From Candidatus Nanosynbacter sp. BB002 (GTDB lineage: Bacteria > Patescibacteriota > Saccharimonadia > Saccharimonadales > Saccharimonadaceae), in assembly GCF_037013405.1 (NCBI RefSeq), contig NZ_CP146064.1, positions 30,001-62,000 of the forward strand: a stretch of DNA of 32,000 bases, read 5' to 3'. How positions within the stretch are numbered: the first letter of the stretch is position 1; every line of letters begins with the position of its first letter. A program made the translations under genes and the position numbers. The notes under the pieces were generated by a model. That model saw nothing but the letters and a program-made list of their open reading frames with translations. It was not told where the DNA came from and did no database searches. Positions 3,660 to 31,679 of this stretch are shown piece after piece.

Positions 3660-4148
3660 CTATTTTTGTGGATTTGACAGATAATCTATCTCTTTGATCA
3701 CATCCAGTAGGGCTTGAGCGCGGCGGGATTCGTCGGCGATGGCACCAGCTGCTGCATGTGCTGGAGCGATCAAGGCGCTGTCATCTGTTGAGCGTAGCAA
3801 CAACAAATAAGTGTCAAACTTTTCTTCCGGGGAGATGTTTAACTTATCAACCAGGGGACGAAGCTCTAGTAGTGCTTGTTGCTTGATGGAGTCTAGGTTT
3901 GAGTCACTTACCGGGGCTACAGGGGTCGTAGTATCGACGGAAATAGGCACTGCTGGCGGCGGCGCGACCATCAGATCATCTGTTGCCACTGGAATTGAAT
4001 TATCTGGCGGCGGCGCGACTACCTGAGCGTCGTCTGACTGCGGAGTTGTCCCCGTCTCTTCAAAGCTCAAATTATCATCTGTTTGTTGTGTTACACCTGC
4101 CAAAACCTTGGCAAGCTCTTGATCATCGGTAACTGATTGGTTTTGCAT
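3660..4148 (-). CDS. Hypothetical acidic, Pro/Thr-rich protein (162 aa)
   Basis: The long ORF has a GGGGTGGGG SD-like tract upstream of its ATG. It has a low-complexity N-terminal half and a helical C-terminal half. I recognise no family. Confidence 0.55.
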   Translation of the reverse strand: MQNQSVTDDQELAKVLAGVTQQTDDNLSFEETGTTPQSDDAQVVAPPPDNSIPVATDDLMVAPPPAVPISVDTTTPVAPVSDSNLDSIKQQALLELRPLVDKLNISPEEKFDTYLLLLRSTDDSALIAPAHAAAGAIADESRRAQALLDVIKEIDYLSNPQK

Positions 4149-14779: not shown

Positions 14780-16417
14780 GTGGTGATGGAACACACAATT
14801 CAAGAAGTTATTGCAAAGCTATTTAATATTGAAACGACGGTGCAGTTGACGCGTCCTGATCCAAAGTTTGGTGACTTTGCGACGAATGTGGCGCTGCAGC
14901 TAGCGAAGCCCTTGGGTAAAAATCCACGTGAGATTGCCGAGGCGATCGCAGAAGAGTTGCGTGGTCATGAGGAGTTGGGCGAGGTGAGCGTGGCTGGACC
15001 AGGCTTTATCAACGTGACGTTAAGCGACCAAGCAGTGCTGGAGTCATTGAAAGTGCGACCGGCCACCAATCGTTCAGGCCAAACGGTCGTTATTGAAACT
15101 AATTGTCCAAATCCATTCAAAGCTATGCATATTGGTCACGCTTTGAATGCGATTTTGGCGGACACTATGGCAAATTTGCTGGCGGTGGACGGCGCGGCGG
15201 TACATCGGGTGAGTTACCACGGCGACGTCGGCACGCATGTCGGTAAGAGTATGTGGGCGATTCTTCGCGAAATTGACGGCGATGTCGGTAAATTAGAGGC
15301 TATTCCAGCTGACAAGCGCAATGAATTTATGAGCCGTATGTATGTTGAAGGCGCACGGGCAGCTAAAGAATCACCAGAGGCACGAGTAGAGATTGATGAG
15401 CTAGCCAAGCAGTCATTTGTGCTGGATGATCCGCTGTACAAGCAAGTGTACGAGATTTGTAAAGCCTGGAGCTTTGATGAAATTGATGTCAATGTGGCGC
15501 GGCTGGGCAATGTGCCGATTGAGCGGCGTTATGTTGAGAGCGAGACTGAAGTGCCAGGTAAGACCTTGATCAAAGCAAAAACCCCAGAGTTCTTTACCAA
15601 GTCCGATGGTGCGTATATCTTCAAAGGTAGTCAGTATGGTGCGTTTGATAATGTATTTATCGGTTCGCACGGCAACGGGTTGTACGGCGCGCACGATATG
15701 GGGTTGATTCAGCTGAAGCATCAAGATTATCCAAACTTGGACTTGTCAATTACGGTCAATGGCGAAGAGCAGGCGGCGTATTTCCGCGGGGTGATTGCCG
15801 CTAGCGAACTCGCAATTCCAGAATTGAAGGGTAAATTGTTTAATTATGCGACTGGCCTCGTCAAGCTAACAACCGGCAAGATGAGCTCGCGTACTGGTGA
15901 CGTCATTACTATCGATTGGTTATTCAACGAGTTCAAGAAAGCTATCACCCAAGCTGGCGGCGAACCAACCGACGCGGTGGTGGCAGGTGCGCTGCGCTAT
16001 CAATTCCTGAAAGTGAAAATTGGTAGCGACGTGGTGTTTGATATCAATGATGCGGTGAGTCTAACAGGTAACACCGGTAGTTATCTGCAATACGCGCACG
16101 CTCGGGCGCGGGGTATTTTGGCAAAGTCTGAGCAGACAGTTGCTTTCCCGACAGAATTGTTTGATGAAGATCGGCTGCTGGTCAGGAAAATGAGCGAATA
16201 CGCGGAGGCGGTTAACCGAGCTACTGAAAGTCTGGAACCGCATCATGTTTGTGCCTACCTGTTTGAGCTGGCGCAGGAGTTCAATCGTTACTACGAGAAA
16301 AACCAAGTCGTCGGCAGCGACAAAGAAGCGCACCGCGTTGGTCTGGTGGCGGTGTACGCTGATATCTTGAAAGCAGGGTTGACTGTTTTGGGTATTGTAG
16401 CGCCAGAGAGGCTATAA
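14780..16417 (+). CDS. argS: Arginine--tRNA ligase
   Basis: Class I HIGH motif is AMHIGHALN, the KMSK-like motif is GKMSSRTG, and an ArgRS anticodon-binding C-terminus is present. GTG 14780 has GGTGG 7 nt upstream; ATG 14786 is an alternative start. Confidence 0.93.
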   Translation: MVMEHTIQEVIAKLFNIETTVQLTRPDPKFGDFATNVALQLAKPLGKNPREIAEAIAEELRGHEELGEVSVAGPGFINVTLSDQAVLESLKVRPATNRSGQTVVIETNCPNPFKAMHIGHALNAILADTMANLLAVDGAAVHRVSYHGDVGTHVGKSMWAILREIDGDVGKLEAIPADKRNEFMSRMYVEGARAAKESPEARVEIDELAKQSFVLDDPLYKQVYEICKAWSFDEIDVNVARLGNVPIERRYVESETEVPGKTLIKAKTPEFFTKSDGAYIFKGSQYGAFDNVFIGSHGNGLYGAHDMGLIQLKHQDYPNLDLSITVNGEEQAAYFRGVIAASELAIPELKGKLFNYATGLVKLTTGKMSSRTGDVITIDWLFNEFKKAITQAGGEPTDAVVAGALRYQFLKVKIGSDVVFDINDAVSLTGNTGSYLQYAHARARGILAKSEQTVAFPTELFDEDRLLVRKMSEYAEAVNRATESLEPHHVCAYLFELAQEFNRYYEKNQVVGSDKEAHRVGLVAVYADILKAGLTVLGIVAPERL

Positions 16418-16473
16418 GTCGCTCTACATTAAATATGGTACAATCAAGGTGTTACTTAACGTAAAGGAGTTTT

Positions 16474-16908
16474 ATGGCGGAGAAAAAAGTAGCCAAGAAA
16501 GCGGCAGTCAAAAAAACGACGACCAAGAAGTCAATTATTAAAAAACCAAGCGTAGCGGCGTTAAAAGAAAAAGCAGGCGTGGTAAAAAGCCATGGCGGCG
16601 GCTTTATGATGTTTATTCGTGAGCAGGGTGTCGTTGGTCTAGCTGTCGGTTTGGCGATCGGTACTGCGGCTGGTGATACCGTGAAAAAGTTGGTGACAGC
16701 ATTCATCGACCCGCTTGTACAGTTGATCGTTGGTTCGCAACAAGGTCTCCAGGCAGCATCATTTACTGTTGAGATCGCTGGACGTCGGGGTGAATTTTTG
16801 TACGGAGCATTTATCAGCTCATTGATCACCTTGCTGGCGGTTGCCTTTGTAGTCTATGCAATTGTCCATTTTTTGAAACTTGATAAATTAGACAAGAAAA
16901 AAGACTAA
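16474..16908 (+). CDS. mscL: Large-conductance mechanosensitive channel MscL with a lysine-rich N-terminal extension
   Basis: The MscL core is FIREQGVVGLAVGLAIGTAAGDTVKKLVTAFIDPLV plus a second TM segment. It is preceded by about 43 aa of K/A/T-rich sequence. SD AAAGGAG. Confidence 0.85.
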   Translation: MAEKKVAKKAAVKKTTTKKSIIKKPSVAALKEKAGVVKSHGGGFMMFIREQGVVGLAVGLAIGTAAGDTVKKLVTAFIDPLVQLIVGSQQGLQAASFTVEIAGRRGEFLYGAFISSLITLLAVAFVVYAIVHFLKLDKLDKKKD

Positions 16909-16971
16909 AACGCTTACGTTTGCCATTTTGCGCTCTCCTATCTACAATGTGAGTATAAAGGAGAGTGTAGT

Positions 16972-19518
16972 GTGAAAGATGGAGTCCGGAGGGCGGGTTA
17001 TTTACATAGGTCGAAAGAACCGAGTAGTAGCCATTTGTTAAGTCAGAATATTGAAGGTCCTCGACGGTCGCCATATAACTATGGCGAGTCTCCCGAGCAG
17101 AGAAGACAGCGCCTCGAAGAATTGCGAAAACAGCACGGGAAGTTACCGGAAACTCCTTTTGCTAACTACGATCTTGGTGACAAAACATTGCCTGCGTATA
17201 AGCACAAAGCAGAGATATTAGATACACTCTCAGAGAACAAAATATCTTGGTTATGTGGACCGACGGGTAGTGGTAAAACGACACAAACCGCTCAGTATGC
17301 ACTGGAGCGGTTTGATCGTGTTGTGGTGTTGATGCCGCGACGGGTGATTGTTGATAATGTTACTGAATATGTCGAGCAGAATTTACGTGAACAGCTGGGC
17401 AAACAATATCCTGATCATTTGGTAGGAAAAATTCATGGACGCGCCACGGAAGCAATGCCAGATACTAGACTTTGTTTCATGACGGCAGCAACGTTTACAA
17501 AGAAATTGGAACAATTTTCTCGTGATTGGCATGGTGAGAAAACGCTGGTGTTGGTTGATGAAATACATGAAGCCAATTTGGAGATGGAATTTGCTACGGC
17601 CCTGGCGGCAAAATCGATAGAGAATACCGACAAATGGCATATGGCTTTTTCCAGTGCGACGCCTGACACGGAAGTTTCTCAGGCGATGTACGAAGATATT
17701 AATGGATCAGCATTGCCAGTCGTAACCATCGAGGGTCGGCCGTATGATATCGACATTACAGAAGATAACGTGGGGACCGTATCTGAAGCGTATCTTGAAT
17801 ATGGTAAGGACTCGAAAAAAGCACTGGTCTTTGTTGAAGGGGTGAGAAGTATTGAGGAAACTATTGCGTCAATCAAACGTCACACCCGCCATCAACCTAA
17901 GAGGATACGATTTTTTAAATTACACTCTGGCATATCAGAGGCTGCGCGCCGAGAGATTTTTACTGCCAAACCAGCAGAAGACGAGTCGTTTGTCATCGTT
18001 TCGACCTCGGCTGGACAGTCTGGCATCACCATCCCTGAGGTCGATTTGGTGTTGTCAAATGGACTGACGAAGAGTAAAGAAATCGGCGAAGAGGGTGCGG
18101 AAGGATTGCCACCTCGATTGTGTACCCAGGCAGAGTTGATGCAACAGGCGGGGCGTGGTGGCCGTGATATTGACGGTGCAAAGTTTGTGCTGGCGCGGCC
18201 AATTTCTTACGGCAAGATTTATCTACCAGAGGAGCTGAAAGGATTTTACGACATCAAGTCCCGTGAACAGCACATCCCACCGGAGATATATCACACCAAT
18301 ATCGTGCGTAACGTCTTGTCGGCTATCAATTTGAACGGTGATTTTGAAGACTTGAACCGGTACTTGATGCATCCTGTTGCTAGTAAAAAAGTTATTCAAG
18401 AGTCGTACGATTTGTTGGAAACATTGGAGGCGATTGATGAAGAAGGGCAGATTACAAAAATTGGTGAATTTATGGATAATCTACCATTGTCACCAGAATT
18501 ATCTCGAGCATTAGCAGAAATGATTAAACGTGGAGGAAGCTTGCGTGAAGTGTTGGCGCTGTCAGCGATGGCGGCTTCTATCTCTGGTGGTGGCTTTGCT
18601 GCCTGGCACCAACCAAAGGAACTATTCCAGGAATTTGTCAGCCCCGATACAACAGATGACTTTTTTGCCGAATACGATGCTTTTTTGAAAACCAGAGAGA
18701 TCTACAACGGTCATCACACTGATGGTCGTGCTTATCTGGCAAATGGTATTGACCCAAATAAGGCAGATAATATTCACTATCAATTTAACAAAATATGTCG
18801 GCGTCTGGAGGTTAATCCATATGACGTCGATATGGGTGAACTGAACAGTGAAGAAAAACATAATATATCAGTGGCCCTGCTGCGGGGATTTCAAGAGTTG
18901 TTGTATGCCAAGGTTGGTAGTCGACGTATTGGTCGAACAACAGTTAACCAATACAGAAATGTTCATACTGGCGAACGTGGTATTTCTGAGTACGAAATTA
19001 GTTCGTATAGTTTAGCGCGGCGTATGGGGATGGAGGCGCTGAAGTTGGTAGTAGCCTTTCCGTGGTGGTATGACGCGCATGATGGTCGTCGACATACGCT
19101 CAATACAATTTTGCCGGTGACGAAGGATCAAATCACGCAAGCCCTGAGCGACAGTGCCGTGCCTGAGTTCCTTGGTGACCGGGTGGCTCCGAATGGCGAT
19201 TTGGTTCATGTGGCGCAGCCGAAAGTTGGCTCACTAGTGATCGGTCCAGAACAGCAGCAAAAAATCCCCGCTACGACAGATAAACAAATCGCGCTGATAG
19301 TGGACACGATGAAAAACAGGGCCAATAAACAAGTAAGAGTATTGTTTGATTTACAACATCAGCGAGTTATTACTAAGGGTCAATTGCGTCAGGTCCTAGA
19401 CGGGTCTGCGGTAAATAGTCACAATGTCCATGAAGCGGAGGCTAAGGTTTGGGCTGTGGTGCAAGAGGTATTAACGAGCGAACAGCAAGAAGCTTTTTAT
19501 GGTCAGGTAAATAGATAA
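16972..19518 (+). CDS. DEAH-box (HrpA/HrpB-like) ATP-dependent helicase
   Basis: Motifs GPTGSGKTTQ (I), DEIHE (II), SAT (III) and QQAGRGGR (VI) are present, as is an HA2-like segment (LETLEAIDEEGQITKIGEFMDNLPLSPELSRAL). GTG start with AAAGGAGAG SD. Confidence 0.85.
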   Translation: MKDGVRRAGYLHRSKEPSSSHLLSQNIEGPRRSPYNYGESPEQRRQRLEELRKQHGKLPETPFANYDLGDKTLPAYKHKAEILDTLSENKISWLCGPTGSGKTTQTAQYALERFDRVVVLMPRRVIVDNVTEYVEQNLREQLGKQYPDHLVGKIHGRATEAMPDTRLCFMTAATFTKKLEQFSRDWHGEKTLVLVDEIHEANLEMEFATALAAKSIENTDKWHMAFSSATPDTEVSQAMYEDINGSALPVVTIEGRPYDIDITEDNVGTVSEAYLEYGKDSKKALVFVEGVRSIEETIASIKRHTRHQPKRIRFFKLHSGISEAARREIFTAKPAEDESFVIVSTSAGQSGITIPEVDLVLSNGLTKSKEIGEEGAEGLPPRLCTQAELMQQAGRGGRDIDGAKFVLARPISYGKIYLPEELKGFYDIKSREQHIPPEIYHTNIVRNVLSAINLNGDFEDLNRYLMHPVASKKVIQESYDLLETLEAIDEEGQITKIGEFMDNLPLSPELSRALAEMIKRGGSLREVLALSAMAASISGGGFAAWHQPKELFQEFVSPDTTDDFFAEYDAFLKTREIYNGHHTDGRAYLANGIDPNKADNIHYQFNKICRRLEVNPYDVDMGELNSEEKHNISVALLRGFQELLYAKVGSRRIGRTTVNQYRNVHTGERGISEYEISSYSLARRMGMEALKLVVAFPWWYDAHDGRRHTLNTILPVTKDQITQALSDSAVPEFLGDRVAPNGDLVHVAQPKVGSLVIGPEQQQKIPATTDKQIALIVDTMKNRANKQVRVLFDLQHQRVITKGQLRQVLDGSAVNSHNVHEAEAKVWAVVQEVLTSEQQEAFYGQVNR

Positions 19519-19537
19519 CGAGTGTATAATAGGTAGT

Positions 19538-19626
19538 ATGAGTAAGACAAAAAATATTATGGATCGACCTGGAGATGACTGGACTAGATCCAGTGCGTGA
19601 TGAGATTTTGGAAGTGGCGCCGATCG
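19538..19626 (+). pseudogene. Relic 5' fragment of orn (start codon plus about 30 codons, frame-disrupted)
   Basis: It aligns to the orn 5' end at 20763-20862. The A8 run is shortened to A6 and 9 nt are missing, so ATG 19538 is out of frame with the conserved LWIDLEMTGLDPVRDEILEVA part. Homology stops at 19626. Confidence 0.8.
19557..19626 (+). repeat. Direct repeat, left copy (67/70 identical to 20793-20862)
   Basis: Base-by-base alignment with a 1236-nt offset. The perfect 54-bp core is 19566-19619. Mismatches fall at 19565, 19620 and 19622. Confidence 0.95.
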
Positions 19627-19633
19627 TATTTAT

Positions 19634-19662
19634 TTGACTTTTTAAATGATTTATGCTAAAAT
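19634..19662 (+). promoter_or_regulatory. Promoter of the nucleotidyltransferase cassette gene
   Basis: TTGACT (19634-19639), 17-nt spacer, TGcTAAAAT (-10 at 19657-19662). It begins 8 nt after the end of the left repeat. Confidence 0.65.
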
Positions 19663-19711
19663 ATTGTACGTGGAAAAAGTAAGCCCGAACCCGAGCGATA
19701 TAGAGGCTAAG

Positions 19712-20755
19712 ATGCATCAGCCTCGTGTTCTGCAAATGCTTGATAGTGGTGAACATTATGCGGATTTAGGAGGGGAGAGCCTTCAATTAAAAGACTGTGA
19801 TTGTGAGCAACTCGGTAACCCGGAAGCTCGCTGCAATGAAATATATGAATATGAGTTGCCTGCCGATGCTATTGAGCGGGCTAATTTGGGTTTTGATTTA
19901 GATGAACTACCGTCATTTATTGGTGTAAAGGGCGGGGCGGCTCGCCAGGTTTTGGAGGCATTAGTACACAGTGACCGTCAGTTACCACCTCCTCGCGATG
20001 TCGATTTGGTAATTTTAGAAGAAGTTATTGCTAGCGGCGATTATGATCCAGATGAGATTTGGGCGGTAGCGAGCAATCTTTCAATGCGCTTTTCGCCGCG
20101 TGATGCAATGAATGGCTATGGTGCGGAGCCTGTGCATTCTACCGCTGAGTTTATGAGGCAGCATGATTTTACAATCAATCAAGTGCTTATACACAAGGAC
20201 GGTGACACTTGGAGGCTGTTGGCCAGTACTCAAGCAGTGTTGGATACTGCCGAGCACGTTATCAGGCCAACGGTATTTGAGCACGATCCTGATAATAGCT
20301 ATCGTATTGGTAACAAATTAGCCCTCAAGGCTGTGCGCCTTCTTTCAGATATGCAAGTTCAAGGAATTGACGATGTAAGTATTAAAAGCGTTCAGCTGCC
20401 AGATGATACTTATGGCGATCCAAGAGACGATTATTTCATGCAAACGTTGCAACTAGATAAGGCTTTAGAGGTCAGCGACGAATTAGCTGAACGCTATGTA
20501 GAAAATCTGAGGTCCTACCGGATGCTGCCATATGGTTGTGAAGACATGAGCGCTGCTGAATTATACTATGAGTTAGTCAATCGGACAAATTTTGTTCCCT
20601 CTGACGGCAACGCATCTGGTGTTTTTCTGACTGAAAGAGAAAATCGTCTGGAGCTTGGTAGTGTAGCAAAATTTAATGACGCTGTTGAACGGTTGCTGCA
20701 GCAGGTGCCAGAGCAGTTTTCTCGTGACTATTACGACTCTAAAAAAGTAGTATAA
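19712..20755 (+). CDS. Divergent class-II nucleotidyltransferase (CCA-adding enzyme / poly(A) polymerase family head and neck domains)
   Basis: KGGAARQVL...RDVDLVI corresponds to the GGxVRD...DxD motif. HDFTINQV corresponds to RRDFTINA. VIRPT..FEHDP...ALKAVRL corresponds to LRtv..F.EDPLR.LRA.RF. Start is set at ATG 19712 (GAGG SD 5 nt upstream) because the ORF-track start 19646 lies inside the promoter. Confidence 0.7.
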   Translation: MHQPRVLQMLDSGEHYADLGGESLQLKDCDCEQLGNPEARCNEIYEYELPADAIERANLGFDLDELPSFIGVKGGAARQVLEALVHSDRQLPPPRDVDLVILEEVIASGDYDPDEIWAVASNLSMRFSPRDAMNGYGAEPVHSTAEFMRQHDFTINQVLIHKDGDTWRLLASTQAVLDTAEHVIRPTVFEHDPDNSYRIGNKLALKAVRLLSDMQVQGIDDVSIKSVQLPDDTYGDPRDDYFMQTLQLDKALEVSDELAERYVENLRSYRMLPYGCEDMSAAELYYELVNRTNFVPSDGNASGVFLTERENRLELGSVAKFNDAVERLLQQVPEQFSRDYYDSKKVV

Positions 20756-20756
20756 T
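20751..20756 (+). promoter_or_regulatory. TATAAT box 6 nt before the orn ATG (predicted leaderless), overlapping the upstream gene's stop codon
   Basis: The sequence reads TAG TATAAT AAAGAT ATG (20748-20765). Confidence 0.45.
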
Positions 20757-20762
20757 AAAGAT

Positions 20763-21314
20763 ATGAAAGTAACTTTTAAGCCAAAAAAAATTTTATGGAT
20801 TGACCTGGAGATGACTGGACTAGATCCAGTGCGTGATGAGATTTTGGAAGTGGCGGCAATCGCTACGGATTGGGATTTTACGGAAATTGCGACCTATGAG
20901 GGTGTGGTGCGACATGATCCGGAGAAGTTGGGTAAGCTACTGGACCGAAATGCTAGCTTTTGGGACCAGCATCCAGCAGCGCGGCGCGGTTTGGAGGAGC
21001 AAAATATGTCTGGTAAGCCGCTAGCCGAGGTGGAGCGTGAGTTGTTGGCATTTTGCGATGAGCATTTTGCAGATGAGCCACGGATTTTGCTTGGTGGTAA
21101 TTCAATCCACCAGGATCGGCGGTTTATTGATCAGTGGTGGTCAATGTTGTCAAAAAGACTACATTATCGGATGTTGGATGTCAGCGCTTGGAAAGTGGTG
21201 TTTGAGGGTAAATATGGTAAGAAATTTGCCAAGCCAGAGGATCATCGGGCGCTGGAGGATATTCGCGGCAGTATCATGGAACTTAAGTATTATTTAAAGA
21301 AGGTGAAACCATGA
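20763..21314 (+). CDS. orn: Oligoribonuclease (DEDDh 3'-5' exoribonuclease)
   Basis: LWIDLEMTGLDP, GNSIHQDRRF, YRMLDVS and HRALEDIRGSI align along the full length with E. coli Orn. Confidence 0.9.
   Translation: MKVTFKPKKILWIDLEMTGLDPVRDEILEVAAIATDWDFTEIATYEGVVRHDPEKLGKLLDRNASFWDQHPAARRGLEEQNMSGKPLAEVERELLAFCDEHFADEPRILLGGNSIHQDRRFIDQWWSMLSKRLHYRMLDVSAWKVVFEGKYGKKFAKPEDHRALEDIRGSIMELKYYLKKVKP
20793..20862 (+). repeat. Direct repeat, right copy (inside the functional orn 5' coding region)
   Basis: See the left copy. The perfect core is 20802-20855. Confidence 0.95.
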
Positions 21315-21676
21315 CCCATAAACAATTTGAAGAGTTTATCCTGAGTTTGCCAGGTGTGTGGCTGGACTATCCGTTTGGTGAGGATATCGCGGTATATAAA
21401 TTTGGCAAGAGTAATGATGGTGCAGGGAAAATGGTGGCATTGGTGGCGGAAGGCTCAAAGCCACTCAGGGTGAGTTTGAAATGTGACCCATTGCTGGCGC
21501 AGAATTTGCGGGAAAAATACGAAACGGTACTACCGGGCTATCATTTGAACAAAAAGCACTGGAACACCATCATCTGTTCGGGGCAGTTGAGTGATGAAGA
21601 AATTTTTGATTTGGCGCGGCTGAGCTGGCAGTTGGTTAGCGGTATTACACCGGAGAGCTCTCGAGACGCTTCTTGA
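21311..21676 (+). CDS. MmcQ/YjbR-family protein
   Basis: The 121-aa sequence PGVWLDYPFGEDIAVYKFG...KCDP.....LREKY..V.PGYHLNKKHWNTI is typical YjbR. An ATGA overlap couples it to orn. Confidence 0.6.
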   Translation: MTHKQFEEFILSLPGVWLDYPFGEDIAVYKFGKSNDGAGKMVALVAEGSKPLRVSLKCDPLLAQNLREKYETVLPGYHLNKKHWNTIICSGQLSDEEIFDLARLSWQLVSGITPESSRDAS

Positions 21677-22247
21677 TGGAAGTGATGTCTGACTGTGTTT
21701 TTTCTAAGAATTCTTTGACGTCAGATTTTTTGGCTTTTTTTGACAAGCTGGATAATTCTGAACTAAGCAGCTCAAGTTGATAGGCCATCTCCCTGGTGTA
21801 GACAGCATCGAGCTGGTCGTTTAAAAAGGCATCATCTAGCTTTTCATTGAGCTTTACCTCAAAGTCCGGCACCTTGAGAGCTTTGTTAATATCCAGTTTT
21901 TCTGACTGAGCGATTGGTGTTGCCTTATTGACGGCGGTGGTTAATATTGCATCAAGGGAGCTGTTAATGTCAGTGACCGTGCTATTTTTTAGACGCTTTT
22001 TCTGTAGTTCAGTGACTGTTTGTAGGCGGGCAACCCTCATGATGGCGTTAGAAACCGTTGGACCAGAACCTGACTGACTGGCCGCCCAAATGAAGCCAAG
22101 ACTGAGCACACCAACCAGTGCAATGATGATAATGATGATTTTGGTTTTCTTATCAAATCCAGCTGGCTCTGGTGGAGCAGCGATTTGATTGAGATAATCA
22201 ATACCAGATGGTGTTGGTGGTTGAGAATATGGATCATTTGGATACAT
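21645..22247 (-). CDS. Hypothetical single-pass membrane protein (200 aa)
   Basis: It has a Pro-rich N-terminus, one TM segment (IIIIIIALVGVLSLGFIWAA) and a helical ectodomain. Start is set at ATG 22247, preceded by TGC TTAAAT AGTACT. Its 3' end overlaps the convergent yjbR-like gene by 32 nt. Confidence 0.55.
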   Translation of the reverse strand: MYPNDPYSQPPTPSGIDYLNQIAAPPEPAGFDKKTKIIIIIIALVGVLSLGFIWAASQSGSGPTVSNAIMRVARLQTVTELQKKRLKNSTVTDINSSLDAILTTAVNKATPIAQSEKLDINKALKVPDFEVKLNEKLDDAFLNDQLDAVYTREMAYQLELLSSELSSLSKKAKKSDVKEFLEKTQSDITSIKKRLESSPV

Positions 22248-22253
22248 AGTACT

Positions 22254-22262
22254 ATTTAAGCA
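22254..22262 (-). promoter_or_regulatory. Extended -10-like box (TGC TTAAAT) 6 nt before ATG 22247
   Basis: The minus strand reads TGC TTAAAT AGTACT ATG. Confidence 0.35.
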
Positions 22263-22285
22263 TAAACACGAACAGAGGTAAAGGG

Positions 22286-22294
22286 TGATATAAT
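22286..22294 (+). promoter_or_regulatory. Extended -10 promoter (TGA TATAAT) 6 nt before the dnaG ATG; predicted leaderless
   Basis: The sequence reads TGA TATAAT AAAGAC ATG (22286-22303). Confidence 0.5.
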
Positions 22295-22300
22295 AAAGAC

Positions 22301-24037
22301 ATGCAAGATGCCAAAGAAGAAGTGCGGGCACGACTGAATATTGAGGACGTGATTGGTGAGTATGTTCAGCTGAAGCGGGCAGGTCGTAACATGAAGGGAC
22401 TTAGTCCGTTTACCGACGAGCGAACGCCAAGTTTTATGGTTAGTCCAGAAAAGCAGATTTGGCATGATTTTTCGTCAGGCAAGGGCGGTGATGTATTTTC
22501 ATTTGTGATGCTGGTGGAGGGGATGGATTTTCGCCAGGCGTTGGAACATTTGGCGCGTAAGGCGGGTGTGGATTTGAGTTTGTTCTCTCGCGGTGATGGG
22601 AGAACTGCCAAGCGGCGAGCACGAGCGGCTGAAGCATTGGAGCTAGCGGCAAAATTCTTCCAACAATCACTACTGCGTACACCCAAAGCCCTGGAGTACG
22701 TCGTCAAAAAACGTGGTCTGACTCGACAAACGATTCAGGATTTTATGGTTGGGTTTGCGCCAGATGACGGTTCATCGTTGGTAACGGCACTCACCAAGCG
22801 GGGCTTTTCAAAACAAGAATTAGCCGATGCTGGTTTAACGAATAGATTTGGTGGTGATTTGTACCGTGGTCGGATGGTGGTGGCACTTATGGATGCGACT
22901 GGCAGAGTAGTTGGGTTTACTGGCCGGATCATTCATGATGAGGCAAATGCCCCAAAATATTTGAACACGCCGCAAACACTTCTGTTTGATAAATCACGGC
23001 ACATCTTTGGTTTGTCTCAGGCTAAAGAGGCGATTCGAAAATCAGACGAAGTGGTAATCGTTGAGGGTAATTTGGATGTAGTGAGTAGTCATCAGGCAGG
23101 GGTGCGGCAGGTTGTCGCCACGGCTGGAACAGCTATCACTGAACAGCACCTCAAGGCCTTGAGTAGGCTGGCTAGTAGAATTAAATTAGCGTTTGATGGT
23201 GATAGAGCGGGTTTAAATGCGACTGAACGGGCTATCAAACTATCACAAACCATTGGTGTGGAGCTGGAAGTTGTTAGCTTACCAGAGGGTAGTAAGGATC
23301 CGGATGAATTGATCAAACTACATGGCGTGAAGCAATGGGAACTGGCTATCACTAACGCTGTACCTGCCGTAGCGTGGGTGATACAACAATACTCGCAGCG
23401 AGAAAATGTCAGGATTGCTGAGGGAAAACGACGCTTTTCAACTGCATCGCTGAACTTGATTCGCAGCTTGCATGATCCAGTAGAACAAGAGCATTATTTG
23501 CAGATGGTGGCTGAGAAAACAGGGGCAAGTATAGAGGCTCTTACAGCAAAGATGTCTGGCATCACAACAAACAAAACGGTTCTCCGCCACCCAAAAGTTA
23601 AGAAAACAGCACCACAAAAACCATCAGATGAGACGCTCGATATGCTACTAGGGCTTGCAGTGCAAGAGCCGGGAGTGAGGCGTTGGCTGGCGTCGGTGCC
23701 AGAAGAAATTACGGACAATGTAAATACTCGAGAACTGTTGAAGTATCTCACCCAAAACCCCAATGCAGCACTGGATCCGATGCCCGAAACCTTGAAAAAT
23801 ATTGAAGAGTATGTAAAGATAGTACAGTTGAAATTCGACACTCGTTATGCCGACTGGGATAAAGACGATTTACCAGGTGAGATGGCACGATTGGTCAAAC
23901 ATGTAATATCCAAACACCGTGAAAACAAAATACAACAATTAATGAGTAATTTGCGTGATGCTGAAACTGCAAACAATGAGTCGTTGGCTCACGATCTGCG
24001 ACATCAGCTGAACGCACTAATTAAGGAGAAAGCGTGA
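22301..24037 (+). CDS. dnaG: DNA primase DnaG (zinc-binding-domain ligands all substituted)
   Basis: The N-terminus aligns with the DnaG zinc-binding domain ([36 protein letters not shown]). The TOPRIM motif is [11 protein letters not shown]. Confidence 0.92.
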
Positions 24038-25008
24038 CCGACGATCCAATAAAAAACAGGCCATTAGCAACTGATGAGACGGAATTCGATGAGCCGACCA
24101 TCGATGATGTTGATGATGACGAGGAAACCGAAGACCTTGACGCTCTGAATGCTGGGCAATACCTGGATGATATCTCTGATGACTCGGTCAGGTTGTATTT
24201 GCGTGAGATTGGTAAAATTCCGCTGCTCAATGCTGAAGAAGAGATGGAATTGGCACACCGTGTGATTCAGGGTGATAAAAGGGCTAAAGATAAGATGGCT
24301 GAGGCGAACATGCGGTTGGTGGTGTCAATTGCCAAGCGGTATTCGGGCCGTGGGTTGGATTTTCTAGACTTGATTCAGGAAGGTAATACTGGCCTGCTTC
24401 GCGCGGTTGAGAAGTTCGATCCAGACAAAGGCTTTAAGTTCTCAACCTATGCCACCTGGTGGATTCGCCAGGCGATTACTCGAGCGATTGCTGACCAGGC
24501 ACGAACCATTCGTATCCCGGTGCACATGGTGGAAACCATCAACAAATTGTTGCGCACTCAGCGACGGATGACGCAAGAGTTGAACCGTGAACCGACTATT
24601 GAAGAGCTGTCTAAAGAGCTGGATATGGAGCCAGAAAAGATTGAATATGTGATGAAAATCAAGCAAGACATTTCAAGCTTGGACGCGGGTGTCGGTCGTG
24701 ATGGTGATGAAGAAGATTCGGTGTTGGGCGATTTCATCGAAGATGAAGATACGGTATCACCAGAAGAGTCAGCGACCAATCAATTGCTCAAAGAGCAGGT
24801 CAATGATGTACTGTCGAGCTTGAGTGATCGTGAGCAGAAAATTGTCCGTATGCGCTTTGGGTTGGACAATGGTAAAAGCCACACGTTGGAAGAAGTTGGT
24901 CAAGAGTTCGCTGTGACACGTGAACGAATTCGCCAGATTGAAGCGAAGGCTTTGGCGAAGCTGAGGAAGCACAAAGATGCTAAAAAATTGTATGAATATT
25001 TGAGCTAA
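24034..25008 (+). CDS. rpoD: Primary RNA polymerase sigma factor (sigma-70 family)
   Basis: Region 1.2 is [16 protein letters not shown], region 2 is [27 protein letters not shown], and region 4.2 is [24 protein letters not shown]. The GTG start overlaps the dnaG stop (GTGA), with AAGGAGA SD. Confidence 0.93.
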
Positions 25009-31298: not shown

Positions 31299-31679
31299 TT
31301 ATTTGTCAGCTTTTTTGGCAGCAGGCTTTTTTGCCGCTGGCTTCTTTGCAGGTGCCTTTTTGGCAGCTGGCTTGGTAGTTGGTGTTTTCTTTGCAGCAGG
31401 TTTCTTGGCTGCCGGCTTTTTGGTAGCTTCTAGTTTAACACCAGCCTCTTTGGCTGCTTTGCTCAGAGCGCTTTTACGGCGAGCTACAGTATTTTTCTTC
31501 AAAAGACCCTTTTTAACTGCGGTATCTAATTCAGAGTGGGCAGCTGCCAAGGTAGTAGCGGTTGGATTTGCGTGAAAAGCTTTGACTGCTGATTTGATAT
31601 CTTTTTTGATGCCGATGTTCTTTTCACGGCGTTTGACTGCTTGTTTAGCGCGCTTGATGGCGGATTTGATGATTGGCAT
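31299..31679 (-). CDS. rpsT: 30S ribosomal protein S20 with KKPAAKK-repeat C-terminal extension
   Basis: The S20 core is MPIIKSAIKRAKQAVKRREKN...RRKSALSKA, followed by about 43 aa of Lys/Ala/Pro repeats. SD AAAGGAG, with TGTATAAT upstream. Confidence 0.9.
   Translation of the reverse strand: MPIIKSAIKRAKQAVKRREKNIGIKKDIKSAVKAFHANPTATTLAAAHSELDTAVKKGLLKKNTVARRKSALSKAAKEAGVKLEATKKPAAKKPAAKKTPTTKPAAKKAPAKKPAAKKPAAKKADK

Follow-up and report, generated by a model that had tools for sequence, protein, structure and literature searches.

How does a single gene come to be bracketed by two nearly identical copies of the 5' end of the gene next to it? The question is raised by a stretch of 32,000 nucleotides (nt) from Candidatus Nanosynbacter sp. 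BB002 (NZ_CP146064.1 of assembly GCF_037013405.1, positions 30,001–62,000 of the forward strand; hereafter the window, from whose first letter all positions are counted), where a gene that we refer to as the cargo lies between a fragment of orn, the oligoribonuclease gene, and the working orn itself. Direct repeats of 78 nt at 19549–19626 and 20785–20862 are identical at 74/78 positions (95%) with a spacing of 1236 nt, and their perfect 54-bp core (19566–19619, repeated at 20802–20855) has exactly 2 matches in the window, where 100 shuffles give an expectation of 0. A previous reading made from the letters alone (the sequence-only reading) had described a 67/70 repeat with this core and this 1236-nt offset, which both the repeat search and the exact-match count bear out, and had taken the arrangement for the footprint of DNA inserted into orn. 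The answer that we favor, with a probability of roughly 0.72, is that the repeats are two orn 5' copies from alternative versions of a fast-evolving mscL/helicase/cargo/orn locus that were joined by ordinary recombination, with no mobile element involved. The features on which the argument depends are the following.

16972–19518, forward strand: helicase gene, 848 amino acids (aa), DEAH-type, with Pfam domains DEAD, ResIII and Helicase_C.
19519–19626, forward strand: left orn stub, with a -10-like TATAAT at 19525–19530, an ATG at 19538 and about 33 codons of an MSK-type orn allele.
19549–19626, forward strand: left copy of the 78-nt direct repeat, with the perfect core at 19566–19619.
19627–19633, forward strand: junction spacer TATTTAT, 7 nt from the stub to the cargo promoter.
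19634–19662, forward strand: cargo promoter TTGACT-17-TGcTAAAAT, conserved with the gene in genomes that have no repeat.
19670–20755, forward strand: cargo gene, 361 aa, predicted class II nucleotidyltransferase-like fold, the only gene between the repeats.
20751–20756, forward strand: -10-like TATAAT upstream of the working orn, overlapping the cargo stop codon TAA at 20753–20755.
20763–21314, forward strand: working orn, a 183-aa DEDDh oligoribonuclease with an MK..FKPKK-type N-terminus.
20784–20810, forward strand: probable gene-conversion tract in the working orn, with 6 sites relative to loci L026 and L027.
20785–20862, forward strand: right copy of the 78-nt direct repeat, within orn codons 8–34.

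The left copy is a dead orn 5' fragment in this genome, as the sequence-only reading had recognized. The open reading frame (ORF) from the ATG at 19538 encodes MSKTKNIMDRPGDDWTRSSA, 20 codons closed by a stop at 19598–19600, and it is the shortening of its A-run by one base (A6, not A7) that puts the stub out of frame. Compared with the right copy, the stub has A6 instead of A8 and lacks 9 nt (MSKTK vs. MKVTFKPKK), a difference that had also been pointed out and is visible in the sequence, and it is truncated after ...GCCGATCG (cut after ..GATCG). What it is a fragment of can be read from the loci of relatives that we compared with the window (about 115 in all, labeled L001 to L115). In genomes where the helicase is followed by orn without the cargo (L046, L067–70, L101–111), the helicase stop is succeeded by the left-copy sequence of the window (GAGTGTATAATAG..ATGAGTAA..), and there this sequence starts an intact 180-aa Orn beginning with MSK(A/V/P)KKILW. 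What the window carries on the left is therefore a truncated 5' end, that of an alternative, MSK-type orn allele. The MK..FKPKK start, which the window carries on the right, is the common one, being found in the empty and cargo-only genomes of all clades, and the MSK type is the rarer allele. We considered whether the MSK-type start is specific to the helicase and arrived with it, and dropped the idea, as it is contradicted by L114, which has a degenerate MSKAKK-type orn start after the cargo, and by L115, a helicase-orn locus with an FKPK-type start.

An Orn-alignment scan of species-representative genomes yielded 80 loci, all of them from Candidatus Saccharibacteria/Nanosynbacter. At least 23 contigs encode an Orn identical to that of the window, and the 10 of these that were examined, all human oral metagenome assemblies from ENA, share the gene order argS, mscL, helicase, cargo, orn, yjbR, dnaG, rpoD, polA. 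Among human oral Saccharibacteria of the Nanosynbacter group, the duplicated orn 5' arrangement occurs in over 30 independent assemblies, with lineage-specific variants, and likewise in dozens of species-level metagenome-assembled genomes (MAGs) and in one complete genome of a related species.

Locus states were assigned by tblastn, and every combination is found at this one spot: aak/mscL directly followed by orn (empty), helicase-orn, cargo-orn without the helicase, helicase-stub-cargo-orn, and loci with other content. The helicase is thus variably present, and the left stub, where there is one, directly follows the helicase stop. A second orn 5' copy accompanies 27/32 loci that have both helicase and cargo, none of the 53 that have neither gene (0/53) and none of the helicase-only loci (0/13); of the 14 loci assigned to the cargo-only class, one gives a match, L019, whose short contig breaks off within the helicase. 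The sequence-only reading had held that an arrangement shared by all relatives with no variation in cargo would point to an ancient fixed rearrangement; the cargo is in fact variably present.

Neither gene is a newcomer to this spot. In distant lineages (39–63% identity) that have neither the helicase nor the repeat, the cargo lies directly upstream of orn under its own conserved promoter, and many cargo-less loci retain its last 2–22 codons before orn, from which it follows that the cargo was present first and has been lost repeatedly by different deletions. Across the about 115 loci it is never found away from orn. The overlap of the cargo stop (TAA, 20753–20755) with the orn TATAAT (20751–20756), to which the sequence-only reading had correctly drawn attention, is conserved in cargo-orn genomes without the repeat, and a remnant of it is retained in cargo-less genomes. 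The helicase is old at the locus as well, with homologs there that reach down to 40% identity: L115 (40%) has the helicase-orn state, and L114 (62%) has helicase and cargo separated by a 32-nt gap with no stub. Scenarios with a recent cargo beside an old resident helicase, or the reverse, were dropped, since both genes are at the locus in distant lineages. On the DnaG tree the empty, helicase-only and helicase plus cargo states are interleaved among near-identical species, and therefore the locus either turns over quickly or is shuffled by recombination.

The cargo-less counterpart of the window can be described at nucleotide resolution. The sequence-only reading had proposed that related genomes be compared for an empty site in which the helicase stop is directly followed by orn, and our search of metagenome contigs for the helicase-orn junction pattern gave 11 loci. 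L109, on a 392-kb contig of the window's species that is 97–98% identical to other strains of that species, aligns to 15953–19626 (95.9%) and to 20784–24880 (96.6%); the two blocks have 79 nt in common, the repeat itself, so that L109 holds a single repeat copy and is an exact empty site. An empty site with one repeat copy is found in the sister species as well (L046, L107, L067–70).

The empty alleles of the L016 clade are chimeric, being left-type up to AAG or GCGAAAAA and then carrying the clade's right-type single-nucleotide polymorphisms (SNPs; GATTTTATGGGTGGATTTGGAG). The retention of one hybrid repeat, as in direct-repeat-mediated deletion, is thus found in the L016-clade empty alleles and, by one SNP, in L109. 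The left copies (stubs) of the clade read ATATTATGGATCGACC and the 5' ends of its empty alleles read GATTTTATGGGTGGATT, a mismatch which means that the empty state derives from the duplicated one, and not the duplicated state from the empty one by simple insertion. There are two switch points between left-type and right-type sequence in the L016 clade and others in L107, L109 and L046, at least 4 different ones overall, which indicates several independent events that were not site-specific. Every complete cargo-less allele of the clade encodes an intact 180-aa Orn. The stub of the L016 clade has a frameshift at the A-run, and only a switch at or left of that run preserves the reading frame of orn; all the switches observed there are of this sort, from which we infer that selection for a working orn filters the products of deletion. 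The stub of the window is frameshifted too, and therefore a crossover in the 54-bp core would shift the frame of orn and break it.

The close resemblance of the two copies in the window has a separate cause. In the right copy, the clade-mates L026 and L027 read AAGAAGATTTTGTGGATGGATCTTGAG, like the outgroups, and the window and its closest relatives read AAAAAAATTTTATGGATTGACCTGGAG; at all of the differing sites (6/6, within 22 nt) the right copy of the window has the state of its left copy. Outside the tract, orn is 94–96% identical between the window and L027, and the tract changes Orn residue 13 to I, where M or V stands elsewhere. From the pattern of substitutions, the tract is probably a conversion into the working orn, either from the stub or from an MSK-type allele. 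The similarity of the repeats in the window is accordingly owed to the conversion tract and not to a recent event. In L024, the two copies are 100% identical over 71 nt.

In the duplicated state the stub is decaying, and it has fared differently from lineage to lineage. It is in frame only in L001-type strains, L026 and L056; the A-run frameshift is seen in the window, L002, L027 and the entire L016 clade; stop codons interrupt the stub in L020 and L022, and L025 and L063 bear further disabling changes. Its truncation falls at three different points across lineages, and in L021 it has been deleted outright. In the alignment, the spacer between stub and cargo promoter measures 7 nt in the window, 12 nt in the L016 clade and about 95 nt in L020, where it is homologous to the sequence upstream of the cargo in helicase-less genomes; the three lengths together fit a single founding join of a helicase-orn[MSK] haplotype to a cargo-orn[MK..FKPKK] haplotype, followed by small deletions. 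As a separate observation, the 115-nt deletion of L021, which among species representatives is nearest to the window and has an identical Orn (100%), takes the helicase stop together with the whole stub, and the helicase frame now terminates within the cargo promoter (..YGHLTF*, 3880–3895 of that locus); in the distant L114 the helicase stop likewise falls in the cargo promoter.

These observations can be brought together in a proposed course of events. The segment between the repeats is the native cargo-orn module known from many lineages, made up of the cargo promoter, the cargo, the usual orn -10 and the MK..FKPKK start. By the most likely route, a helicase-orn[MSK] genome would have re-acquired this module from a related genome, with a homologous crossover within or beyond orn at one end and an illegitimate join inside orn codon ~34 at the other, after which small deletions would have left the 7 nt (window) and 12 nt (L016 clade) of upstream-of-cargo sequence. 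Recombination between the repeats, or slippage, would then delete the cargo and regenerate a single, hybrid and intact orn with no dedicated recombinase, and occasional gene conversion would homogenize the copies. In the window, the 1-nt frameshift of the stub would lock the cargo in unless a crossover occurs in or to the left of the A-run. Nanosynbacter and its relatives take up DNA by natural competence and integrate it through homologous recombination with arms of ~1 kb (PMC10633639).

Several points weigh against this account. The direction of change within the window's own species is tentative: the hybrid status of L109 depends on one informative SNP (ATTTT vs. ATATT), and the locus could be an original helicase-orn allele; the chimeric empty alleles in general could come from allelic recombination with the DNA of cargo-less relatives, with the crossover in orn. 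The L016-clade crossovers lie in 4–7 nt of identity, which suggests slippage or illegitimate recombination instead of a RecA-type exchange. Homogenization is not a general rule, as the copies of the L016 clade differ at 6–11 of 52 sites and the mean difference of a copy to its own partner is 5.3 compared to 6.0 to the copies of other genomes (permutation, 24 distinct pairs, p = 0.15); general concerted evolution is therefore not significant, the signal is confined to the window's clade, and conversion is claimed only for the window's sub-lineage. The one-sided homologous and illegitimate join is reconstructed without direct evidence, and an in situ duplication followed by deletion would leave the same structure. 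Finally, the stub (87 nt) is 92–98% conserved between clades in comparison to ~66% at fourfold degenerate sites of the helicase and cargo, which the decay of a pseudogene does not by itself explain.

The last point merits closer description. The stub of the window is 96–98% identical to those of the L016 clade and 92% identical to that of L020. Relative to the L016 clade, the last ~70 helicase codons together with the stub (19300–19605) form the most conserved 300-nt block, at 92–96% identity, and the fourfold sites at the helicase 3' end are identical at 21/24 positions, compared with 11/20 for L020. This pattern suggests that the block is a tract recently exchanged between clades that ends near the stub. 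The conservation of the stub might come from refreshment by conversion, from shuttling of the allele through the selected helicase-orn state, or from a function of the stub; we place low weight on the last, because the stub is often frameshifted and is lost in L021.

The alternative that survives best is that of repeated gain, in which helicase-orn genomes take up the cargo module by transformation, with helicase and orn serving as arms, and the empty alleles are ancestral. Nanosynbacter has been shown by experiment to be naturally competent with ~1-kb arms (PMC10633639), the locus states do not track the DnaG tree, L109 is marked as a deletion by one SNP, and the in-frame stubs of L001-type strains, L026 and L056 could mark recent gains from a selected allele. 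The L016 clade is difficult to accommodate, as its stubs (ATATTATGGATCGACC) do not match the 5' ends of its empty alleles (GATTTTATGGGTGGATT), so that simple insertion fails where the reverse works exactly. A double crossover, moreover, creates no stub by itself, and a founding illegitimate event would still be needed. We thus regard repeated gain as unlikely to be the main process, though it has a real claim.

A second alternative holds that the stub is under selection, either because it serves the cargo as an upstream promoter or leader, or because it keeps a second promoter and start codon in reserve, so that orn survives excision of the cargo. Its 92–98% identity between clades against ~66% at neutral sites would be accounted for in this way, and with respect to L020 the adjacent helicase fourfold sites are identical at 11/20 positions; the TATAAT and ATG are kept in every lineage with a stub that was compared, and all complete empty alleles make an intact Orn from the stub start. 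The stub region also folds modestly better than shuffles (z = −2.3). Against selection, the stub is deleted in L021 and most copies are frameshifted or stopped (L016 clade, L022, L020, L025, L063, window) and variably truncated; the identity to the L016 clade reaches into the helicase 3' end (21/24 fourfold sites), which argues for an exchanged block and not for constraint; and neither TATAAT box (19525, 20751) has a -35 element or was called a promoter. A selected stub seems doubtful on this balance. In a more specific form of the idea, the stub with its -10 box and start codon would form, together with the right repeat, a reversible on/off switch for the cargo that needs no recombinase: excision would leave a viable orn with an alternative N-terminus, re-acquisition would occur by natural transformation, and A-run frameshifts would act as a lock. 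Such a switch, if real, would explain the conservation of the stub, and we consider it a long shot. The stub, and the GC-rich region that precedes the cargo in relatives, were also considered as the site of a structured RNA or riboswitch; this was rejected, as an Rfam scan of the window, L011, L044 and L020 gave no family at gathering score and the z-score is only −2.3; a search for a terminator after the helicase as the cause of the conservation found none.

It can also be supposed that the stub arose in situ, through tandem duplication of the cargo with the orn 5' end, deletion of the first cargo copy, and later divergence and allelic replacement. The stub-less helicase-cargo-orn arrangement looks ancestral (L114), and the weak homology upstream of the repeat (TATAAT, ATG, 9-nt indel) fits divergence from one sequence. 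This course requires more steps, however, and a separate allele with the MSK-type start already exists: helicase-orn genomes use it as their working start, and in L114 it follows the cargo. Between helicase and stub nothing is seen of a first cargo copy, and L020 has upstream-of-cargo sequence to the right of its stub, as expected of a haplotype join. In situ origin is accordingly improbable in our estimation.

Far less probable is a small integrative or mobile element that inserted into the 5' end of orn with a replacement promoter and N-terminus, with attL/attR-like repeats and a recombinase encoded elsewhere. Two repeat copies in the filled state against one in the empty state are the formal signature of site-specific integration, and the cargo is variably present among close relatives; to this extent the likeness to attL/attR noted in the sequence-only reading stands, in that there is a variable cassette with a one-copy empty site (L109). 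The remainder of the likeness is lost. No integrase or transposase is encoded in the 32-kb window, where all other ORFs tested are housekeeping genes, and the repeat search of the window found no terminal inverted repeats at the cassette ends; both absences had been stated from the sequence and are confirmed by family scans and repeat search. The crossover points differ and are not fixed, the cargo is lost also through unrelated internal deletions, and it is not foreign to the site, since it never lies away from orn and adjoins it free of repeats in distant lineages. The supposed replacement 5' end is the common orn allele, and the cargo is a long-standing neighbor of orn, so the proposal of inserted DNA that brought a new promoter and N-terminus is not supported. 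The hint of foreign composition, which had been drawn from single lines of 38 and 57 percent GC, does not hold at the level of genes: the cargo has a GC fraction of 0.452 and a third-position GC (GC3) of 0.395, with other window genes at 0.427–0.55 and 0.34–0.625, and its codon usage (cosine) is no outlier among them. As all three measures lie inside the range of window genes, foreign composition of the insert was rejected. A transposon or insertion sequence with target-site duplication was also set aside, there being no inverted repeats and no transposase, and the duplication being at least 78 nt instead of 2–14 bp. That the left repeat is an assembly artefact (mis-join or collapsed repeat) can be dismissed, for beyond the general risk of metagenome assembly nothing speaks for it, and the same structure recurs in independent assemblies, namely 10 ENA assemblies by different assemblers, dozens of MAGs and one complete genome, with lineage-specific stub variants.

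We thus return to the joining of alternative versions of the locus by ordinary recombination, which can be placed beside known systems. Deletion between short direct repeats (RecA-dependent or slipped-strand) shares with it the flanking repeats, the one-copy empty allele, the hybrids and the lack of a dedicated recombinase. It differs from the usual case in that the repeats here include a start codon, so that after a deletion the gene is whole again but has another N-terminus and another upstream sequence, and in that a frameshift of the stub limits the viable crossovers. Integrative elements in gene ends (tRNA, tmRNA, protein genes) are similar to the extent that a partial duplicate of the target brackets a segment with a one-copy empty site and the intact copy of the gene stands on one side, whereas here there is no integrase, no fixed crossover and no other site, the "insert" is native, and it is the 5' end including the promoter region that is duplicated.

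Homology-facilitated illegitimate recombination during natural transformation has been described in Acinetobacter baylyi and Streptococcus pneumoniae. The proposed event resembles it in having one end held by homology, whether in or downstream of orn or on the helicase side, one illegitimate join and a competent host group; unlike those cases, the event here is deduced from the anatomy of the junction, and the partners are versions of the same locus, which results in a partial gene duplication. In Neisseria, gene conversion carries sequence from silent pilS fragments into the expressed pilE gene, and in a comparable way the non-functional fragment here appears to donate a short tract to the expressed orn (M/V13 to I). 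The difference is that only one fragment and one tract are seen here, confined to one sub-lineage, and nothing points to a role in generating diversity. Events of this kind are known, and the locus resolves one of them well; the added detail is that the stub supplies the start codon of the regenerated gene.

The gene between the repeats deserves description in its own right. Its promoter, TTGACT(19634)-17-TGcTAAAAT(19662), which the sequence-only reading had called near-consensus, is the best sigma-70-like site in the region (10/12, extended -10). The GTG start at 19670 aligns with the ATG of relatives and lies only 7 nt after the -10, so that the transcript probably has no leader. The cargo start really used in the window strain could be an in-frame ATG at 19712, which comes with a GAGG motif.

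The cargo protein has no match in Pfam, NCBIfam or PADLOC, nor do 10 distant members of its family, and a search of its profile against PDB sequences found no match, so that a tie to solved structures at the sequence level was sought and not obtained. A profile search does return 648 cluster representatives, and therefore the family is real, though uncharacterized. Two motifs, GGAAR...PRDVDL and DFTINQ, are conserved in the alignments. Residues G88, G89, R92, R109, D110 and D112 are invariant in 23 sequences and form what we take to be motif A (GG-x-x-R...D-x-D); motif B lies in DFTINQ, where D166, T168 and N170 are invariant and F167 and Q171 nearly so, and the preceding RR is unconserved.

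The AlphaFold2 model of the cargo has a mean pLDDT (predicted local distance difference test) score of 80.6, and its top 23 Foldseek matches in the PDB are all CCA- or A-adding enzymes, bacterial poly(A) polymerase or TENT5, with probabilities of 0.93–1.0, E-values down to 1e-4 and global TM-scores (template modeling scores) that are low (0.25–0.36). The model thus points to a divergent protein with a class II nucleotidyltransferase (CCA-adding/poly(A) polymerase-like) fold. With the class II enzymes (CCA-adding, A-adding, poly(A) polymerase I) it shares the predicted fold and the GG..R...RDxD and DFTxNQ motifs at the expected spacing; it differs from them in that the family is shorter (~340–360 aa), matches no Pfam or NCBIfam model and gives low TM-scores. 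The cargo lies outside the curated family (Pfam PolyA_pol), as the family model gives no match. A defense system made up of cargo or helicase was considered and rejected, PADLOC giving nothing for the cargo and only weak, generic Cas3/BrxH matches for the helicase.

Among the relatives, the cargo is truncated to residues 1–180 in L053 (4887–5426). A GC-rich segment of ~350 nt lies between aak and the cargo in helicase-less genomes (L011:4509–4856, L044:4467–4775), with open frames of ~100–120 codons on both strands and no Pfam or Rfam match, and its last ~95 nt persist beside the stub in L020 (4880–4975).

The helicase scores 104 bits against TIGR01967 (cut-off 723) and 99 bits against TIGR01970 (cut-off 546), which makes it only a distant relative of HrpA/HrpB. 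It is called as 848 aa or 858 aa among strains of the same species (window start 16972 vs. L002/L006/L008), owing to a difference in N-terminal start site or an indel. Signs of decay are seen in L018 (2318–4864), where it is split into ORFs of 659 aa and 164 aa, and in L035 (1179–2666), where residues 1–496 only are present. The working Orn matches Pfam RNase_T (PF00929) above cut-off (E = 2e-15), and the catalytic residues D14, E16, D118, H161 and D166 are invariant in the alignment. Its stop codon overlaps the start of yjbR (ATGA, 21311–21314), and translational coupling is probable; in L011, L013 and L015, from other clades, the two genes are separated by an inserted corA gene or 237-aa ORF.

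Other content at the locus includes an island of 5–6 kb between aak and orn (L033:150–5400; also L037, L041, L060). The L033-type island encodes an STIV B116-like protein (Pfam E = 1.7e-16), proteins of 477 aa and 620 aa without a family match, and also a 224-aa protein that is similar to the cargo family in its N-terminal portion; the island may have been inserted at this hotspot from a phage or a plasmid. Elsewhere in the window, ribosomal protein S20 (31299–31679, reverse strand) is extended at its C-terminus by a stretch with matches to histone-H1-like HC2 and extensin-like low-complexity models.

The locus illustrates that a single-gene cassette of mobile appearance can arise by recombination between alternative versions of one chromosomal locus. 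An attL/attR-like footprint, even with an exact empty site, is insufficient on its own for calling a mobile element, which matters for genome scans. For the small genomes of oral Saccharibacteria, the locus provides a nucleotide-resolution record of gene-content turnover, in which the helicase, the nucleotidyltransferase-like gene or both have been lost independently in at least 5 ways from one spot of ~4 kb, sequence passes from a pseudogene fragment into a working gene, and a frameshift decides which deletions are viable. The uncharacterized family with a predicted nucleotidyltransferase fold beside orn is a moderately interesting side finding in a group, Nanosynbacter, whose strains are now genetically tractable: its persistent adjacency to an oligoribonuclease gene, and often to an RNA-helicase-like gene, suggests that it may carry out an as yet undescribed activity at RNA 3' ends.

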